Source: Escherichia phage LHE287. From it: 64,000 bases of DNA. Where the stretch lies: sequence record PP761450.1; one strand, 5' to 3'. The stretch's first letter is position 1. Each line of letters starts with the position of its first letter. The notes beneath the pieces were generated by a model that worked only from the letters and a program-made list of their open reading frames with translations, did not search any database and was not told the origin of the DNA. A program made the translations under genes and the position numbers. This document shows, in pieces, positions 2,854-60,915 of this stretch.

Positions 2854-2988
2854 TCCCTCCTAAATACCCCATACAACCAGTGTGGGGTATCTATGAAACC
2901 TTCCTCCAATATTTCCTAGAGGCGTCCTGTACAAACCAGGCCTGGCACCTAAATACCCCCATATGGCTAACCCACTGAGGAACCCAAC

Positions 2989-5549: not shown

Positions 5550-5628
5550 AATAAACTCCTTGGTCAATGAATGGCTCTATGGTTAAATATGCCCACGTGC
5601 TAACGGCACGGATAACCTGGAGAATTAC

Positions 5629-8628
5629 ATGACCGTTTTCTATACGAACGTTGCCCGCAGGGGCAATGACCTGTTGATTCGAATTGCAGATGACATGGGT
5701 AATCGCCGTCTGTTGAAAAAGAAATTCGAACCCACTCTCTATTTACCCACGGCTGACTATTCAAATGTTGAAAAGGTCGGTCTTCTCAATGAACCCCTGG
5801 TAGCCAAGCAGTTCCCTTCCATGCGTGACGCTGACAACTATCTTGAAGAGTACAAGGAAGTCCAGGGTGCTTCCATTTACGGACAGACCGATTATGCATA
5901 CCAGTTCATCGCCCATAGCTTTCCTGGAAAGATTGAGCCGGATTACTCCAACATCCATATTGCTAACCTCGATATCGAAGTGTTCTCCGCCGGGTGGAAA
6001 GACGGAAAGATGACCAAAGGTCCATTCCCTCACCCAACCATTGAGCAGCAGACGTTCAAAGGGAATGAGGCGCGCATTCGCCGCTTCCATAAACAAGTGC
6101 TGGCTAACCATGAATTTGTCCGTGAGCACTTCCCTGGTTCTTTCATCAGCAACAACGTCACTGATCAGTTCCCTATCATTGATAGCAATGGCAAGATCAC
6201 CCAGGACATGAATGCGGCGTTCCCCATTACCCTGATCCAGCTTCAGGATATGGCGACCAATAAGTTCATGGTCTGGGGTATGCCCTGTGCCAAAGATCGT
6301 AACAAATTCGCATACGACACCGAAGACAAAGAGATCGGCGGCCTTGAGGTTGTTTATCAGGAGTTCACCACCGAACAAGATCTGCTGCGCTCGTTCCTAG
6401 ACTTCTGGTCACAGCGTCAGTTCGACGGCTGGACAGGCTGGAACATTGAGACGTTTGATAGCCCTTATCTTGTTGAGCGCATGAATCAGGTTCTGGGTGA
6501 AGCCGAAACATCGCGCCTCAGTCCTTGGGGTATCATTAAGAAGCGTATCATTCGCGATAAGAAGGGCGATATCACGACGTATCAGTTCGTGGGTTGCCCT
6601 ATGCTCGATTATATGCAGATCTACAAGAAACACACGTACACCACCCGTGAACGCTACTCTCTTGACTGGATTGCGTATTGTGAGCTGGGTGAGAAGAAGA
6701 TGGACTACAGTGAGAGCAAGTCGCTCTTTGATCTGTACTTCAACGACTACTGCAAACACACCCGATATGGTATCAAAGACGTTAAGCTGGTATGGCGACT
6801 TGAACAGAAGCTGCGCCTGCTCCAGCTGATGTTCGTCCTGGCCTACCGCACCAAGTCCAACTATGAAGACGGTCTGGGCACTGTGGCTCCGTGGCTGGCC
6901 ATGTGCTACTATCGCCTGTACGAGAAGGGGATAGTGCCTAAGATCCAGCGTGTATACGATGGTCCGACCGACTTTGAGGGCGCATACGTCATGGATGTGA
7001 CACCAGGAATCTACTTCTGGGTCTTCTCGGAAGATTTGAACTCCCTGTATCCTCACATCATACAGCAGTACAACCTCGGTCCAGAGACTATCGTTGGCGA
7101 CAAACACCAGCGCCGCGAGATTATTGAGGCTATGTGTGAAGAGCTGGCTGCTCAGATGAATAACATGGCAACGCCGATGCACAAACGTCGGTTGATGAAA
7201 GCCCTTCACGACAAGCTGTTGCGTGCGGTTGACGAACGCCTGCAGGTTGTTGATGAGTTGGTTGCCCTGGGTGAGTTCCACTTTGAAACCCTGCGCCGCT
7301 ACAACGTGTCGTTCACGCCGAACGTTCAATTCTTCAGCAACGAGAAGATGTCGTTCCTGTCTGAAATCATGCGTGGTATCTACAGCGACCGTAAAGTAGA
7401 GAAGGCCAAGGGTCTGAAGTATGAGCAGTGGGCTGGCTGGTGTAAAGAGATGTCGAAGGGCGACTTCCATCTTGAGTCTGCCATGAAGTCTCGCTACTAT
7501 GACCCAGAGTGGTATGAAGAGCACAAGAACATTGATCTTGATGCCCTGACCGAAGTGATGAAGAAGTGGGAAGACCTGGGCGTTGCTCAAGATACCCTAC
7601 AGCAAGGTCTGAAGATCTTGATGAACGCAGGTTATGGCGCTATCTCGAACGTCTGGTTCAAAGAGTACTTCAACCTCAACATTGCCGAAGCCATCACCAC
7701 ATCCGGTCAGCTGATCAACAAGTGGAACAAGCGTTACACTGATGACTATCTGAACAAGCTGTGTGGTACAACAGGCCAGGACTTCGTCATCGCAGGTGAT
7801 ACCGACTCCAACTACATCTGCATTGAGCGTCTTGTCAAGCAGTTGTGGCCTGATGTTACTGACCATCATGCTATGGTTGATAATATCGACCAATGGATCA
7901 AAGACAACTACCAGCCGAAGACCAATGAGTGGGCACAGCTTCTGTGTAACACCATGAACGGATTTGAACAGCGCATGGTATGGGAGCGTGAGGTCATTGC
8001 GTCAGCCGCTGTCTGGCGAGCCAAGAAGATGTATGCCATGGCCGTGTACGACAGTGAGGGTATCAAGTACGAGAAGCCGAAGATCAAGTTCAAAGGTCTG
8101 GAAGCCCGCAAGTCCACCACGCCGGAATGGTGTCGTGAGCGTCTTGTCAAGTGTTATGAGAAGATCCTACTCGGCACCGAAGAGGAAGTACAGGCGCTCA
8201 TCTCCCAGTACAAAGAGGAGTACATGAAACTCTCTGTAGACGATATCGCCAAGGCTTCCGGCGTGTCCGACATAGAGAAGTGTGTGGCTGCTGACGGATC
8301 GTTCATCTCTGGTGCTCATTTTGCTGCCAAGGCGTGTGTGGGCTACAACCGTCTGGTTGAGAAGAACGAAGATCTGGGTCTACCGATGATCGAGTCGGGT
8401 GATAAGGTACAGATGGTGTTGTTGAAGCCGGGCAACCCGTTTGGGCAGAACTACTTTGCATATCCTGAGTTCTTCCCCGAGGAGCTTGGTCTGGGCAAAT
8501 GGGTGGATTATCAGGCGGCCTTTGAGAAGTCCTTCATTGATCCGATTCAGTCTATCCTCGACGTGGTCGGCTGGTCACACAAGCGCCGTGTGAACCTTCT
8601 TGCCATGATGCAAAAGAAGAAAGGTTGA
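5629..8628 (+). CDS. 43: family B DNA polymerase (T4 gp43-like), 999 aa
   Basis: Exonuclease motif LDIEV, polymerase motif A DLNSLYP, motif C GDTDS; size and T4-like genomic context. Confidence 0.95.
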   Translation: MTVFYTNVARRGNDLLIRIADDMGNRRLLKKKFEPTLYLPTADYSNVEKVGLLNEPLVAKQFPSMRDADNYLEEYKEVQGASIYGQTDYAYQFIAHSFPGKIEPDYSNIHIANLDIEVFSAGWKDGKMTKGPFPHPTIEQQTFKGNEARIRRFHKQVLANHEFVREHFPGSFISNNVTDQFPIIDSNGKITQDMNAAFPITLIQLQDMATNKFMVWGMPCAKDRNKFAYDTEDKEIGGLEVVYQEFTTEQDLLRSFLDFWSQRQFDGWTGWNIETFDSPYLVERMNQVLGEAETSRLSPWGIIKKRIIRDKKGDITTYQFVGCPMLDYMQIYKKHTYTTRERYSLDWIAYCELGEKKMDYSESKSLFDLYFNDYCKHTRYGIKDVKLVWRLEQKLRLLQLMFVLAYRTKSNYEDGLGTVAPWLAMCYYRLYEKGIVPKIQRVYDGPTDFEGAYVMDVTPGIYFWVFSEDLNSLYPHIIQQYNLGPETIVGDKHQRREIIEAMCEELAAQMNNMATPMHKRRLMKALHDKLLRAVDERLQVVDELVALGEFHFETLRRYNVSFTPNVQFFSNEKMSFLSEIMRGIYSDRKVEKAKGLKYEQWAGWCKEMSKGDFHLESAMKSRYYDPEWYEEHKNIDLDALTEVMKKWEDLGVAQDTLQQGLKILMNAGYGAISNVWFKEYFNLNIAEAITTSGQLINKWNKRYTDDYLNKLCGTTGQDFVIAGDTDSNYICIERLVKQLWPDVTDHHAMVDNIDQWIKDNYQPKTNEWAQLLCNTMNGFEQRMVWEREVIASAAVWRAKKMYAMAVYDSEGIKYEKPKIKFKGLEARKSTTPEWCRERLVKCYEKILLGTEEEVQALISQYKEEYMKLSVDDIAKASGVSDIEKCVAADGSFISGAHFAAKACVGYNRLVEKNEDLGLPMIESGDKVQMVLLKPGNPFGQNYFAYPEFFPEELGLGKWVDYQAAFEKSFIDPIQSILDVVGWSHKRRVNLLAMMQKKKG

Positions 8629-8654
8629 TTCAATAAACCAAAGGGGGATATAAT
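8626..8654 (+). promoter_or_regulatory. sigma70-like promoter TTGATT-17-TATAAT with the -10 in a hairpin loop
   Basis: TTGATT overlaps the polymerase stop codon; 17-nt spacer; TATAAT forms the loop of hairpin GGGGGA-TATAAT-TCCCCC. Confidence 0.45.
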
Positions 8655-11237: not shown

Positions 11238-11611
11238 AAATTCAAATTCCTCGCGATGCTGTGGCTGTTGCGATCGACTACACCGGAAACGCCAAGCACA
11301 TTACTGCCGTGCGCCTGATTCCTGAAAAGAACTGCGTCATCCCTCAGTTCCAACTGAATGCCAATCCGTCATCCAAAGACTTCGGCAAGTGGTTGCAGGC
11401 TGCTCCGTTCCGTACCCAGACGAACGCTCAGATGTTCATCTCGGGTAAGACTCACACTGCAGCCCGTCTGTGGTTCGTGACCGCTGACCGTCGCTTTGTC
11501 GATATGTGGGAACGTCCGATGGGGTTCGTGAAGCCGGAAGATATTCAGCTGGCTCCTGAGCCTGAAGCTGTGGCTCCTGAAGAGGAAGCGAAAGATGCAT
11601 CATTTATCTAA
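11234..11611 (+). CDS. hypothetical protein (125 aa)
   Basis: Start overlaps the upstream stop (ATGA); internal ATG of the track ORF 11099..11611. Confidence 0.45.
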   Translation: MKIQIPRDAVAVAIDYTGNAKHITAVRLIPEKNCVIPQFQLNANPSSKDFGKWLQAAPFRTQTNAQMFISGKTHTAARLWFVTADRRFVDMWERPMGFVKPEDIQLAPEPEAVAPEEEAKDASFI

Positions 11612-12830
11612 AATGCCGACGGGCTATACGCCTCCGGCTGAATGGAAGTACCCGATTGACCTGGCTGTTGATTATCGCAAGCCTGAGAATCGCATGTACC
11701 TGCTCAAGGCTTGGGTGGAGGCGCTGTCCTACACAGAAGAGCACAACCAGCAGATGCGTCTGATGGACTATGCGATCGAAGTCACTGAAGGCATCAGCCT
11801 CGAACAGAAAGTCGAGCGCAAGATCTGGATGGCATTCCTGTGGGGTTGTTGCTATAACGCCGTCGGGCCGTGGACGATCTACAGTGAGTTCCCTGTGCCA
11901 CCTCAGTCTAAGGAAGAGATGCAGCGCTTCTCTGATTGGTATAATCTGAACTTTGATCGCATGCGATTCGATACCGACTGTCGCTACCGCAAGTCCAAGA
12001 TGATTCCGTGTGTTCAGTCCTATATTGACTGGCTGGCTGGTCGTACTCAATATGACGCTTTCCGTGGGATGTTGGTGTGCATCGATAAGACAGAACAATT
12101 CACCCAGCTGTGGGACACGGCGATGTCCTGGAAATACTTCGGTCGCCTGAGCGCCTGGAACTTCCTAGAAGCCCTGAACATGGTCTTCGGGAACGAATAC
12201 ACCATTGACGTCCCTGGCTTCATGCTGCGTGATCGTGATGGAAGCGAGTCCAACCGTAATGGCGCGGCGTTCTTGTCCAACCGTGACGATTGGGTGACTA
12301 AACACGGGAAGAAAAAGATCAACGGTTGTCCTATCACGGATGAAGAGTGTGACATCCTTGAGGCCGACCTTGAGCAGGCGTTCCAGGATTGTGTGGCTGA
12401 GTTCGGGCACCTGACGTTCATCAACCGCCTGAACTTTGAAACCTCCGGCGCTTGTTGGCTGAAGAAATTCTTCCGACTGAAGAATACCCGTTACATCGGG
12501 TGGGACGCAGAGCGTACCTGGGATGAGATAGACTACATGGAACGCGTCTGGCCTGAATACTCCTGCGCAGCGCTCTGGGAAGCCCGTTCGCTCTGGCTGC
12601 CAGATACCCTGTTGTGCGAAAAGGCTCCTGCAGGGCACGTTCCAGGCGTCCAGAAGTGGAAGATGCCTGTATTCTTTGAGACTGGTGTTCCTCTGCATAT
12701 CTGGCACCTGCAAAAGGGTACGCGCTGGGAACCGTCCGAGGTGTGTACGAACCTGAAGATGCCTGTGCGTAAGGTTGAGGACAAGTCGAAGTCCAGCAGT
12801 GTCAACCTCATGGCACTCTTGAAACGCTGA
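11595..12830 (+). CDS. hypothetical protein (411 aa), Trp/Cys-rich; candidate DNA-modification enzyme
   Basis: ATG with GAGGAAG RBS; co-transcribed downstream of the P-loop kinase; no motif recognised by eye. Confidence 0.5.
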   Translation: MHHLSKMPTGYTPPAEWKYPIDLAVDYRKPENRMYLLKAWVEALSYTEEHNQQMRLMDYAIEVTEGISLEQKVERKIWMAFLWGCCYNAVGPWTIYSEFPVPPQSKEEMQRFSDWYNLNFDRMRFDTDCRYRKSKMIPCVQSYIDWLAGRTQYDAFRGMLVCIDKTEQFTQLWDTAMSWKYFGRLSAWNFLEALNMVFGNEYTIDVPGFMLRDRDGSESNRNGAAFLSNRDDWVTKHGKKKINGCPITDEECDILEADLEQAFQDCVAEFGHLTFINRLNFETSGACWLKKFFRLKNTRYIGWDAERTWDEIDYMERVWPEYSCAALWEARSLWLPDTLLCEKAPAGHVPGVQKWKMPVFFETGVPLHIWHLQKGTRWEPSEVCTNLKMPVRKVEDKSKSSSVNLMALLKR

Positions 12831-12863
12831 TATAAATATCCTCGCCTATAAAGCGAGGATATT
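12831..12863 (+). promoter_or_regulatory. T4-type late promoter TATAAATA overlapping an 11-bp hairpin that sequesters the downstream RBS
   Basis: TATAAATA at 12831-12838; perfect inverted repeat AATATCCTCGC-ctataaa-GCGAGGATATT; GAGGA RBS lies in the right arm; ATG at 12867. Confidence 0.5.
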
Positions 12864-12866
12864 ATC

Positions 12867-13034
12867 ATGTTACAAGATCTGCTGGTTTATGCGCTTCCTG
12901 GCGCGGTTGTCGGCTTCATCGCTGGTGCTCTGGTCTTCCGTAAACACGCGCAAGATGGTGAAGTGATTGTTCAGAAAGGCAAAGAGATTCTGGACCAGAT
13001 CGAAGCCAAACTGGAAGAGCTGAAGAAAAAGTAA
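12867..13034 (+). CDS. small single-pass membrane protein (55 aa), probably late-expressed
   Basis: MLQDLLVYALPGAVVGFIAGALVF hydrophobic helix then a charged coiled-coil-like tail; absent from the ORF track because shorter than 60 aa. Confidence 0.45.
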   Translation: MLQDLLVYALPGAVVGFIAGALVFRKHAQDGEVIVQKGKEILDQIEAKLEELKKK

Positions 13035-13057
13035 TCTGACTGGGTTGCTTCCTTCAA

Positions 13058-13099
13058 TAAAGGGGAATGGGTTATTATTAGCCCGTTCCCCTTTCTTTT
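13058..13099 (+). terminator. rho-independent terminator
   Basis: AAAGGGGAATGGG-ttattattag-CCCGTTCCCCTTT followed by CTTTTT. Confidence 0.6.
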
Positions 13100-13201
13100 T
13101 GCAAGAATATACATCATGGCAATGCAACGAATTGAAGATATGTCTCTACTCAACATGGAAGCGACTTTTAGCGCTTCCGTTATCGTCATGGGAGAATCCA
13201 A

Positions 13202-35211: not shown

Positions 35212-35261
35212 AATCTAGTCCTAAATAGCCATAACACTCTATCTATTTAAGGGCTGAGACC

Positions 35262-55102: not shown

Positions 55103-55123
55103 TTGTCAACTCCTATAAATAAT

Positions 55124-55131
55124 AACAGTTA
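55124..55131 (+). promoter_or_regulatory. T4-type late promoter TATAAATA
   Basis: Exact TATAAATA about 25 nt upstream of the GTG start of 55156..56100, in a divergent intergenic region. Confidence 0.5.
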
Positions 55132-55155
55132 TTTTATTTAAGTGGAGTCCTCACC

Positions 55156-57149: not shown

Positions 57150-57248
57150 TTCTTAATTTCCTCTGTTTCCGCCCCTCAGGGCTATTCTGTTACATGTATT
57201 TTCAGTTTTCTACAAAGCGGGGTAATTATACCCCGATCTTACATTGAA

Positions 57249-57488
57249 TTAACCTTTAAGCACTTGATTTGCTGGGTCAATTTCAATAATGTCGAACACG
57301 TCCGAAAACGTCTTCTTGCCTTCGTCGTGCGTGTGATACTCAACGACATATGAGCGACCATCAGGGGTAACGTAACGAATACGATCCGTCTGGTCGGCAT
57401 GCTCGTTCAGGCTACCCACACGCCAGCGCATAGAGCCAGGAAGGAACTCGGAGGCTTTCATTGCGCTGTAAATTGATTCTTTACTCAT
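57249..57488 (-). CDS. hypothetical protein (79 aa)
   Basis: ATG-initiated ORF. Confidence 0.45.
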   Translation of the reverse strand: MSKESIYSAMKASEFLPGSMRWRVGSLNEHADQTDRIRYVTPDGRSYVVEYHTHDEGKKTFSDVFDIIEIDPANQVLKG

Positions 57489-57495
57489 AATAGAC

Positions 57496-57741
57496 CTACA
57501 CTAATTTCTTGGACTTTAGCGCGTCTTTGATCAGGCGCGCATCGGAGCACTCAGCTGTCAGTCGTGACAACAATGGTGCTGTAATCATCTTTTTGACTTT
57601 GGTCTCGTCTATGTCGTTCTCTTCACAGACAGCTGCCAGAGTCTCAAGGATACTATCCTTGGTTTGGGCGGCGCGTAGTAGGACGATTTCAGAAAATAAT
57701 TCTGGTGTCATCACAAGCGCTGGCTGTTTTTCGTCAGACAT
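57496..57741 (-). CDS. hypothetical protein (81 aa)
   Basis: ATG-initiated ORF. Confidence 0.45.
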   Translation of the reverse strand: MSDEKQPALVMTPELFSEIVLLRAAQTKDSILETLAAVCEENDIDETKVKKMITAPLLSRLTAECSDARLIKDALKSKKLV

Positions 57742-57979: not shown

Positions 57980-58280
57980 GGAACACCCCCACAGTTGTCA
58001 GTACGAAACGTACCATAATGATAACCAGCAACATCACTGTAGAAAACACTACACGCTTGATCATTTTATCGCGCATGTGGATGAACTGATATGAGAGGAT
58101 AGCCTCGGCCTGTTGATCGGCACGAACGTTCGTGTCACGATGTGGGGACAGTGTGTAGAAGTTGATCTGGTACACATACGCATGAACCAGAGTGAAGAAC
58201 GACTTCACCCAGACCAAGACAACCACTAACAACAAAGCGAACGTCAGGAAGTTCGCCAACAACCAATAATCGACCATCAT
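57966..58280 (-). CDS. membrane protein (104 aa)
   Basis: Three hydrophobic segments. Confidence 0.45.
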   Translation of the reverse strand: MMVDYWLLANFLTFALLLVVVLVWVKSFFTLVHAYVYQINFYTLSPHRDTNVRADQQAEAILSYQFIHMRDKMIKRVVFSTVMLLVIIMVRFVLTTVGVFHAAV

Positions 58281-58867
58281 ATACCTCTGTTGAAGTCTGG
58301 ATTATTCTCAATGAAGTAAGAGCCACAAGCCATTATCGCAAACGAATCCACGAGGTCATCGATTGGCTTGGGATCCTTAACTTCCAACATATCCATTATA
58401 CCGCGCATGCTAACATTGAACAGCGACTCGAAGTGAGCGATCATGGCGTGTTTATCCGCGTTGCCCTTGTCGGTGAACATCTTCTTCACATGGGATGGCG
58501 TCACGATCTGGAAGTCGAAATTGTTACGGCGCAGGGCTTGCTTCAACAGTGAGGTATTCTCTGCGGTCTGGCATATGTTGTTGGAGTTCTTAGAGTTGCC
58601 CATAGCATACCCTTCAAGAGTGATCGCATCCGGCTTCTCAGTCAACAGGACAGCCTCAGCCCATTTACAGATGTTATAGAAGCGTTCTTCTGGGGTCTCC
58701 CACTTCGGTTGCTTCATGATAAGGATGTTCTGACGAATCTGAGTGCAGTACTTCTCCACAGTATAATATGCGTAGAAGCGCAGATGATCAAAATCAAGAG
58801 GGTCTTTATCATCCCAGAAGCACAGGGATGGACAGCCATAGGAGTAGTCGATTCCGCAATATTTCAT
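58277..58867 (-). CDS. RuvC-like Holliday junction resolvase (putative)
   Basis: N-terminal YCGIDYSYG, ITLEGYAMG, and C-terminal DDLVDSFAIMACG resemble the RuvC catalytic motifs. Confidence 0.4.
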   Translation of the reverse strand: MKYCGIDYSYGCPSLCFWDDKDPLDFDHLRFYAYYTVEKYCTQIRQNILIMKQPKWETPEERFYNICKWAEAVLLTEKPDAITLEGYAMGNSKNSNNICQTAENTSLLKQALRRNNFDFQIVTPSHVKKMFTDKGNADKHAMIAHFESLFNVSMRGIMDMLEVKDPKPIDDLVDSFAIMACGSYFIENNPDFNRGI

Positions 58868-58918
58868 GTAAATAGCCCATAACGAAGTTTCATTGGTGTA
58901 TGGGCTATTTACGCCGGG

Positions 58919-60768: not shown

Positions 60769-60915
60769 TGTTTGAAACTGATTTATTATCCTACTTCGTG
60801 ATGTGTGATGAATTGAAGTTACACGGCTATAGCATATTTGAAATCAACGAGTCGATGCCATGGCATCTTGACTTGTTAACCGAAGCCCTCAAGGTCAGGT
60901 TGTCTAAGAAACAGT

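Follow-up and report, generated by a model that had tools for sequence, protein, structure and literature searches.

How might a gene at the end of a predicted early transcription unit be held back until late in infection, when a putative late promoter lies directly in front of it? This question is raised by a locus of Escherichia phage LHE287 (sequence record PP761450.1), of which we analysed a stretch of 64,000 nucleotides (nt), called the window in the following. The octamer TATAAATA overlaps here the left arm of a hairpin, and the right arm of the same hairpin contains the Shine-Dalgarno (SD) sequence of a small open reading frame (ORF) encoding a membrane protein of 55 amino acids (aa). 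A sequence-only reading of the window had proposed that transcripts reading through from upstream would fold and mask the ribosome binding site (RBS), while late transcripts starting inside the hairpin would not. The explanation best supported by our analysis, and one that we consider probable, is that the locus is a temporal translation switch of the kind described for the T4 genes e, soc and 49. The production of the small protein appears to be held back until late.

The hairpin and the predicted switch

The elements named by the sequence-only reading are present base for base: an exact TATAAATA overlaps the left arm of a perfect hairpin of 11 base pairs (bp), and the right arm holds the SD sequence GAGGA, spaced 7 nt from the ATG at 12867 of the 55-aa ORF (Table 1). 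Beyond the perfect stem, the AUG and the first codons of the small ORF pair in an extended irregular helix with the last part of the upstream ORF, stop codon included. We computed the folding energies of both transcript forms. For the 47-nt hairpin RNA the folding energy is -17.6 kcal/mol, whereas its shuffles average -5.9 kcal/mol (z -5.3) and none of the 200 is as stable; the 121-nt context, which includes the extended helix, folds at -43.0 kcal/mol (z -5.5). RNA beginning at 12844 folds at -7.9 kcal/mol (z +0.75), which is the level of shuffled sequences, and in the comparison of hairpins between sites the late RNA, taken to start 6 nt past the box, has -1.7 kcal/mol. For positions -13 to +3 the predicted unpaired fraction rises from 0.01 in the read-through RNA to 0.61 in RNA from 12844. 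This is the largest change among the 27 sites with the hexamer TAAATA that we compared, while the average gain in 97 control initiation regions is 0.07 and only 2% of these exceed a gain of 0.4. By this modelled measure the small-ORF locus is the strongest switch among the 27 sites.

The course of events that we propose begins in the early or middle period, when the gene would be read through from the sigma-70-like promoter at 8625-8654 to the terminator at 13056-13104. On this RNA the 11-bp stem, extended to about 24 bp, would bury GAGGA and the AUG, so that the 30S subunit could not bind. Later, RNA polymerase carrying a gp55-type sigma factor, gp33 and the sliding clamp would recognise TATAAATA with its core TAAATA and would initiate at about G12844, inside the left arm. 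A start 6 nt past the box removes 9 of the 11 left-arm bases and keeps 2, and the short late transcript would hence form no hairpin and be translated. The locus has the layout of an RBS-sequestering switch, in that a stable helix of the long transcript takes up SD and AUG and the late box, with its putative start, lies in the DNA for the 5' strand of this helix.

The expectation of read-through comes from the surroundings of the gene. Downstream of the promoter at 8625, the terminator scan of the + strand finds two weak terminator-like stems inside ORFs (9679 and 10237) and no strong terminator-like site before the one at 13059. The small ORF is therefore predicted to close, as its last cistron, an operon of DNA-modification genes transcribed early or in the middle period, a reading that rests on promoter and terminator consensus matches and in which the timing is a prediction. 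Both ends of this unit have counterparts in phage AG3, which is 92% identical to the window phage: the promoter is the early promoter 'Porf237' and the terminator is 'Torf248' with -22.9 kcal/mol (PMC3121705 suppl. S2). The terminator after the small ORF is also annotated in the LIMEstone1 and Matapan records. The window region itself is 98% identical to Escherichia phage YX22 and is Agtrevirus-like within the Ackermannviridae, with matches in 271 records of this family that span Agtrevirus, Limestonevirus, Kuttervirus and further genera. The upstream gene, which we call ADDT, is annotated as aGPT-Pplase clade 2 in phage RPN242.

The family promoter core and its hairpins

Our identification of the late-promoter signal is based on the regions upstream of structural genes, from which a family core was derived. 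The AG3 structural genes share (a)CTAAATA 23-43 nt ahead of the ATG. These genes include gp22, gp18, gp14, gp6, orf206, orf174 and three genes of the tail-spike cluster (orf207, orf210 and orf213), and variants are found as CTAATTA (portal, gp19) and CTAAGTA (gp23). In the window, gp4, gp48, gp2, gp54 and gp5 are preceded by TTAAATA, CTAAATA, TATAAATA or CATAAATA. TAAATA stands 15-50 nt ahead of an SD sequence and start codon in 24 of its 41 copies in AG3 and in 9 of 18 in the window, compared with 2-36% for 14 permuted hexamers. Downstream of the box at the 27 family sites, nt 8-10 counted from the start of TAAATA are pyrimidines at 19-21 sites and nt 12 is a purine at 20. A pyrimidine stretch followed by a purine fits a transcription start about 6 nt past the box, which would be the geometry of T4, where roughly one helical turn separates the late box from the start downstream of it (PMC2988020). 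The box of the small-ORF locus also resembles a gp55-type late promoter in being a TATAAATA-like -10 box without a -35 element and in recurring upstream of virion and lysis genes. A gp33-like gene in the window would supply one component of the machinery by which TAAATA promoters are expected to be read, and homologues of gp55 and gp45 are annotated in AG3, in regions outside the window.

The GenBank record of LIMEstone1, whose authors predicted 33 late promoters, marks the homologous TAAATA ahead of ORF191 as 'putative late promoter'. The promoter call at the small-ORF locus is thus well supported by sequence comparison, and it is not new. The earlier proposal of a T4-type late promoter stands as far as the exact octamer is concerned, and the independently derived core TAAATA leads to the same box; the family consensus (C)TAAATA, however, is not the T4 octamer. 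In two divergent intergenic regions of the window, 35212-35261 (gp4/gp48) and 55103-55155 (gp2/gp54), TAAATA is found on both strands, 32-34 nt before each start and without hairpins. The 'Porf072' of AG3 (Table S2) is the second TATAAATA of the window, at 55114, and lies on the strand of gp54 and not of gp2.

Many of the TAAATA sites are joined directly to a hairpin. The design, with a left arm that starts inside TAAATA and a right arm that contains the SD sequence, is found at 9 of the 27 sites, among them the endolysin, gp14, gp6, tail-spike genes and the RuvC-like resolvase. Examples in the full list of TAAATA sites also include orf174, orf210, orf213 and window 2858-2896. A possible objection is that a C-rich promoter flank could pair with any G-rich SD sequence, and this was addressed by a permutation test. 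The mean pairing energy of the promoter-proximal 16 nt is -8.7 kcal/mol with the initiation region of the site itself and -5.1 kcal/mol with those of other sites, and 0 of 20,000 permutations are as low. The own partner ranks first of 27 at 9 sites, in all cases at -12.4 kcal/mol or lower. Energies of -15 kcal/mol or lower are reached at 7 of the 27 sites and by 4% of the 97 controls, even though each control was given the best of six offsets. Across the whole class, initiation regions are predicted to be 0.36 unpaired at TAAATA sites and 0.50 unpaired in controls (Mann-Whitney p=1.2e-5).

The geometry of these hairpins stays constant, with a left arm running from nt 0-5 to nt 12-17 of the box in 9 of the 11 listed hairpins. 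The sister hairpins fold at -10 to -21 kcal/mol in the read-through form, and RNA from 6 nt past the box at only -1 to -6 kcal/mol. As the left arm begins in the box at this constant geometry, a transcript initiated from the box cannot hold the full hairpin. It is mainly for this reason that we favour a switch over a 5' stabiliser. We also considered whether the hairpins mark sites with a co-directional earlier gene upstream; this fits only in part, because hairpins are also found at gp6 and gp14, whose upstream regions are divergent.

The endolysin is one of two striking parallels to T4, the other being the resolvase. Its hairpin TAAATAccttcgcattcattgcggaggtattttcttATG (AG3 57237-57280, - strand) consists of TAAATA fused to a 13-bp hairpin with GGAGG, followed by TATTTTCTTATG, and the design is kept in 16 loci from four genera, which are all the Ackermannviridae genera sampled. 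The AG3 authors listed this hairpin, with TATTTTCTTAT after it, as the rho-independent terminator Torf098 (PMC3121705 suppl. S2), whereas by analogy it looks like a counterpart of the T4 gene e switch. Two further instances lie in the window. At 2858-2896 the left arm starts in the box CCTAAATA, and candidate roles for this hairpin are those of a decoy, an insulator or a leader peptide. The box is one of two tandem CCTAAATACCCC boxes, at 2858-2896 and 2950-2991; the first lies within a hairpin with 17-nt arms and the second precedes a 152-aa acidic protein (phrog_3852). The other instance, at 58868-58912, is a palindrome with TAAATA on both strands. A different arrangement is found on the - strand of AG3 at 60850 and 66273 and in one environmental contig, where genuine U-tailed terminators, for example TCCCCCTAAATACAGGGGGATTTCTTTTT, have TAAATA in their loop. 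Promoter and terminator overlap here in another way than in the left-arm design.

Among relatives, the box is invariant in all 20 orthologous loci inspected, while the ORF diverges by 8-15% in nucleotide sequence. In 8 distinct orthologues the 11-bp stem is paired in 98.7% of cells and the extended helix in 92.9%. The stem changes are exclusively C-to-U, turning G-C into G-U on either arm (2 pairs), apart from a broken A-U pair in one lineage. Such changes are tolerated in sense-strand RNA and not in DNA or antisense RNA, which is compatible with RNA pairing but no proof of it. The region is too conserved for covariation among orthologues to be informative, and we therefore rely on the paralogous sites and on homologues in Miltonvirus. 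The evidence from absence and from recurrence seems stronger than that from orthologue pairing. Taipeivirus-like and some Serratia phages (IME250) are without box, hairpin and small ORF, the difference being a clean indel that lies after the ADDT stop and before the conserved terminator. Since hairpin and small ORF are missing together where ADDT runs into the terminator, the hairpin belongs to the small gene and not to ADDT. In Miltonvirus a homologue with 64% identity is found about 2.5 kb away, behind a different gene and near rIIA. It carries CCTAAATA or CCTAAGTA (CTAAATA or CTAAGTA) 28 nt before the ATG and a hairpin of unrelated sequence whose right arm contains AGGAG, and a terminator follows. 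Where the two Miltonvirus sequences differ by A-to-G in the box, the right arm shows the corresponding U-to-C change. Judged from these comparisons, box, hairpin and small ORF form a cassette with the behaviour of a mobile promoter-gene-terminator module.

Table 1. Positions of the small-ORF locus, its transcription unit and related features in the window
Feature	Position	Strand	Basis or remark
TGA stop of the upstream 411-aa ORF	12828-12830	+	direct reading of the letters
Box TATAAATA	12831-12838	+	family late-promoter core TAAATA at 12833-12838
Left (5') arm AATATCCTCGC of the perfect 11-bp stem	12835-12845	+	shares 4 nt with the box
Putative late transcription start, most likely G12844	12843-12846	+	T4 spacing and pyrimidine/purine pattern
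7-nt loop CTATAAA	12846-12852	+	direct reading and fold
Right (3') arm GCGAGGATATT	12853-12863	+	contains the SD sequence GAGGA at 12855-12859
Extended irregular helix (12817-12832 with 12863-12877)	12817-12877	+	RNA fold, about 24 bp in all
ORF of the 55-aa single-pass membrane protein	12867-13034	+	ORF list; phrog_3879
ADDT / aGPT-Pplase clade 2 (amino acid:DNA transferase, thymidine hypermodification)	11595-12830	+	Pfam PF18724 E=7.3e-60; phrog_3271
Sigma-70-like promoter TTGATT-18-TATAAT, predicted early	8625-8654	+	10/12 consensus matches
Strong intrinsic terminator closing the unit	13056-13104	+	terminator scan
Second hairpin instance, CCTAAATA, left arm in box, right arm GGGGTAT	2858-2896	+	followed only by an 8-codon ORF (MKPSSNIS)
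Third instance, palindromic TAAATA hairpin with perfect 14-bp arms	58868-58912	-	abuts the ATG of the RuvC-like Holliday-junction resolvase gene
RuvC-like Holliday-junction resolvase gene	58277-58867	-	
gp33-like late-transcription co-activator gene	57496-57741	-	phrog_254 'late promoter transcriptional regulator' E=2.8e-20

Alternative explanations

The most serious rival explanation is that the hairpin is a translational-coupling device, in which a ribosome arriving at the TGA would free the SD sequence and TATAAATA would be incidental or secondary. We think this unlikely, if quite conceivable, and it can coexist with the promoter model. The ADDT stop lies inside the extended helix, 5 nt from the 11-bp stem and within reach of a ribosome. 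Terminating ribosomes could therefore open the hairpin and allow some early translation, which is a point against a strict switch. The upstream stop of orf174 also lies about 5 nt before its box, and the upstream stop TAA of Miltonvirus forms the first three bases of the box and abuts the left arm, so that the adjacency of stop and hairpin is conserved in two lineages. Coupling, however, requires no box, yet TAAATA or TAAGTA is found at a constant 28 nt from the ATG in both lineages. It also leaves unexplained why the left arm always starts inside the box, and the same design occurs without a near stop at the endolysin (about 20 nt), at the tail-spike gene orf210 (a 200-nt gap) and at gp14 and gp6 (divergent regions). 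What remains of the claim that read-through RNA masks the RBS and late RNA does not is the predicted contrast between 1% and 61% unpaired, together with the recurrence of the design; the masking may be incomplete, as the stop codon in the helix allows for coupling.

Another possibility is that the hairpin serves the ADDT message, as a 3' stabiliser, a processing site or a weak terminator or insulator, and that the overlap with the RBS is a result of genome compaction. The description of sister hairpins such as Torf098 as rho-independent terminators by the AG3 authors would agree with this, as would the TAAATA in the loops of the genuine terminators at AG3 60850 and 66273. But the stem at the small ORF is followed by ATCATGTTAC and no U-tract, for which reason we rejected its identity as an intrinsic terminator, and the terminator scan does not flag it. 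A strong terminator follows only about 200 nt downstream, after the small ORF, and the hairpin is absent where the small ORF is absent and ADDT is kept. The hairpin has no match to an Rfam family either, the sub-threshold Rfam hits being confined to the downstream terminator, and we regard a role in the upstream message as very improbable. One of these hits, to the Pseudomonas small RNA P31 at window 13013-13100 (30 bits against a gathering score of 40), covers the end of the small ORF and the terminator and almost certainly reflects just terminator-like structure. There is lastly the idea that an AT-rich spacer containing TATAAATA came to lie beside an unrelated palindrome by chance. It could appeal to the octamer, which on its own is without enrichment in the window, but it is hardly credible in view of the fold (z -5.3), the full conservation of the box in about 20 orthologues despite the divergence of the ORF, and the occurrence of the design at 9 of 27 sites and in Miltonvirus. 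Chance is effectively refuted by the fold, the recurrence and Miltonvirus.

The temporal translation switch nevertheless has to be set against several observations that weigh against it. The exact octamer TATAAATA occurs twice in the 64-kb window against an expectation of 0.63, and two or more copies arise in 14 of 100 shuffles, so there is no significant enrichment; the hexamer TAAATA was therefore analysed in its place. The CBA120 paper (2011) stated that the late promoter sequence of this family was not identified, and the AG3 paper (PMC3121705) gave three guessed late promoters, which is why we derived the signal afresh. The base before TAAATA is most commonly C (14 of 27 sites), and it is A at the small-ORF locus. 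TAAATA also stands before some genes that are not expected to be late, such as the DNA polymerase, with a copy at window 5584-5631 that lies 39 nt ahead of the ATG; this copy may be fortuitous, or else the box is not restricted to late genes in a strict sense. Furthermore, the antisense strand folds as stably as the sense strand here (-17.2 and -15.9 kcal/mol), the stem in the window being without a G-U pair. The orthologues show no double compensatory changes at the small-ORF hairpin, and conservation at the locus could also reflect the box, the SD sequence and the two coding ends. The literature we searched contained no 5'-end or time-course transcription data for Ackermannviridae phages.

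The membrane peptide, known switches and the family pattern

The product that the switch would hold back is a single-pass membrane protein, and the predictions of hydropathy and topology agree in this with the sequence-only reading. The best 19-aa hydropathy window (residues 5-23, mean Kyte-Doolittle 2.23) is a transmembrane (TM) helix carrying G12xxxG16xxxG20, followed by RKH and a K/E-rich amphipathic helix; only 31 residues come after the TM helix. The N-terminal flank MLQD has a net charge of -1, and with RKH after the TM helix the predicted orientation is N-out/C-in. The protein matches phrog_3879 (E=9.5e-32), a PHROG family without assigned function, and relatives are annotated as hypothetical membrane proteins with one TM domain and a coiled coil. 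Comparison with seven orthologues shows the ORF to be clearly coding and under purifying selection, with 10-17 synonymous-only codon differences against 2-6 non-synonymous ones. We found 153 relatives in viral contigs, with the invariant signature GFxAGALVFR. The versions in environmental phages have 42-49 aa, and many in high-GC phages have 43 aa, for example MITHLLALLVGFVAGALVFRKHAAKASELEAKGKSILDALKGK.

The suggestion that the protein is a holin, antiholin or spanin-like lysis factor was not borne out. Its family is phrog_3879, the Pfam search gave weak glycine-zipper hits only and no holin, and the PDB search returned nothing meaningful. The gene lies at 153 kb in AG3, far from the endolysin at 56.4 kb and the spanin at 77 kb, and no recognised holin is found among the AG3 genes beside these two, which speaks neither for nor against the peptide as the missing holin. 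An assignment as holin or antiholin is not supported, as the protein belongs to no recognised holin family and its gene is not linked to the endolysin in Ackermannviridae. An i-spanin is contradicted by the predicted orientation, which is opposite to the N-in/C-out of i-spanins, by the short C-terminal part and by the lack of an adjacent lipoprotein gene: no such (o-spanin) gene adjoins the small ORF in the ORF list of the window, and an Rz-like spanin is encoded elsewhere in the AG3 genome. The gene order in the high-GC phages is tail fibre, chaperone-like gene, peptide gene, 245-aa lipoprotein, small metallopeptidase-like gene (HExxH) and holin-like gene. The latter lies about 1 kb downstream of the peptide gene and matches holins only weakly (PHROG E=2.6e-6; Pfam below threshold). 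Another contig has an endolysin and an Rz spanin 0.5-1 kb upstream of the peptide gene. The linkage to lysis genes in these distant relatives is thus only loose. A role in lysis is open speculation and not a finding. There are also weak hits from 9 of 21 family members (E about 0.01-0.03) to the first 50 or so residues of the NCBIfam model of ZapG. ZapG/YhcB is similar in having a glycine-rich TM helix at the N-terminus and a charged helix after it; with 14 bits against a cut-off of 150 and a family protein of only 43-55 aa, the resemblance is at most one of architecture and not shown homology.

How does the locus compare with known switches? On the long early transcripts of T4 e, soc, 49 and I-TevI the SD or AUG is sequestered, and the late promoters lie in the DNA for the 5' strand (PMC3014915). 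The mechanism that the sequence-only reading had invoked for e and soc is thereby confirmed, and for gene e translation differs about 100-fold between the two transcript forms (PMC3014915). An RBS-sequestering hairpin has likewise been described for Aeh1 mobE by Gibb and Edgell, as cited in PMC3014915. The small-ORF locus shares with gene e an SD and AUG in a helix on the long RNA and TATAAATA in the DNA for the 5' strand, a layout also found at the Ackermannviridae endolysin. It differs in that it controls a 55-aa membrane peptide and not a lysozyme, in that the upstream stop lies in the helix with possible coupling, and in being known from sequence alone. The genes soc, 49, I-TevI and mobE are late or tightly controlled genes inside early units, silenced on the read-through mRNA by sequestration of the RBS, and the small ORF is likewise the last cistron of a predicted early operon. 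The promoters themselves differ as well, as the Ackermannviridae have (C)TAAATA with a pyrimidine-rich flank and T4 an AT-rich flank. The hairpin at the RuvC-like resolvase is a functional parallel to T4 gene 49, although the RuvC-like fold differs from that of T4 endonuclease VII. Another difference is one of frequency: for T4 four such genes are listed among about 50 late promoters (PMC3014915, PMC2988020), whereas in AG3 about one third of the TAAATA sites, including those of structural genes, have the design. The LIMEstone1 annotation marks the homologous late promoter and a terminator after ORF191, and Table S2 of AG3 lists predicted promoters and terminators such as Porf072 and Torf248. 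Neither these two sources nor the family papers searched, with the Viunalikevirus genus paper outside this scope, mention the hairpin or the masking of the RBS.

From what the sequences suggest, the small-ORF locus is best filed as a further instance of the known T4 mechanism in a different phage family. Its design is part of a broader Ackermannviridae pattern that is absent from the family papers and records searched. A further-reaching possibility, which we regard as rather doubtful, is that the promoter-embedded hairpins may be a genome-wide insulation and that the peptide is harmful if made early, as a possible holin or lysis-timing factor or as an effector of the envelope or of division. 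The harm is suggested by the fact that only 7 of the 27 sites reach -15 kcal/mol or lower and that these include the endolysin, the resolvase and the peptide. If this were true, about one third of the late promoters would silence read-through, some perhaps by termination, and would let late genes scatter among early ones. The role of the peptide could then extend to the environmental phages in which homologues are found near holin-like and lipoprotein genes.

Ackermannviridae such as ViI, CBA120, AG3 and LIMEstone are widely used candidates for biocontrol and therapy, and the literature we searched held no published map of their transcription programme. Our results offer a testable definition of the family late promoter, consisting of (C)TAAATA, a pyrimidine stretch and a purine start. 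Several hairpins annotated as terminators would be re-interpreted, and the widespread GFxAGALVFR membrane peptide is flagged as a candidate for a tightly late-restricted product. We predict that the logic of T4 gene e is far broader in Ackermannviridae than in T4 and may include the endolysin and structural genes.

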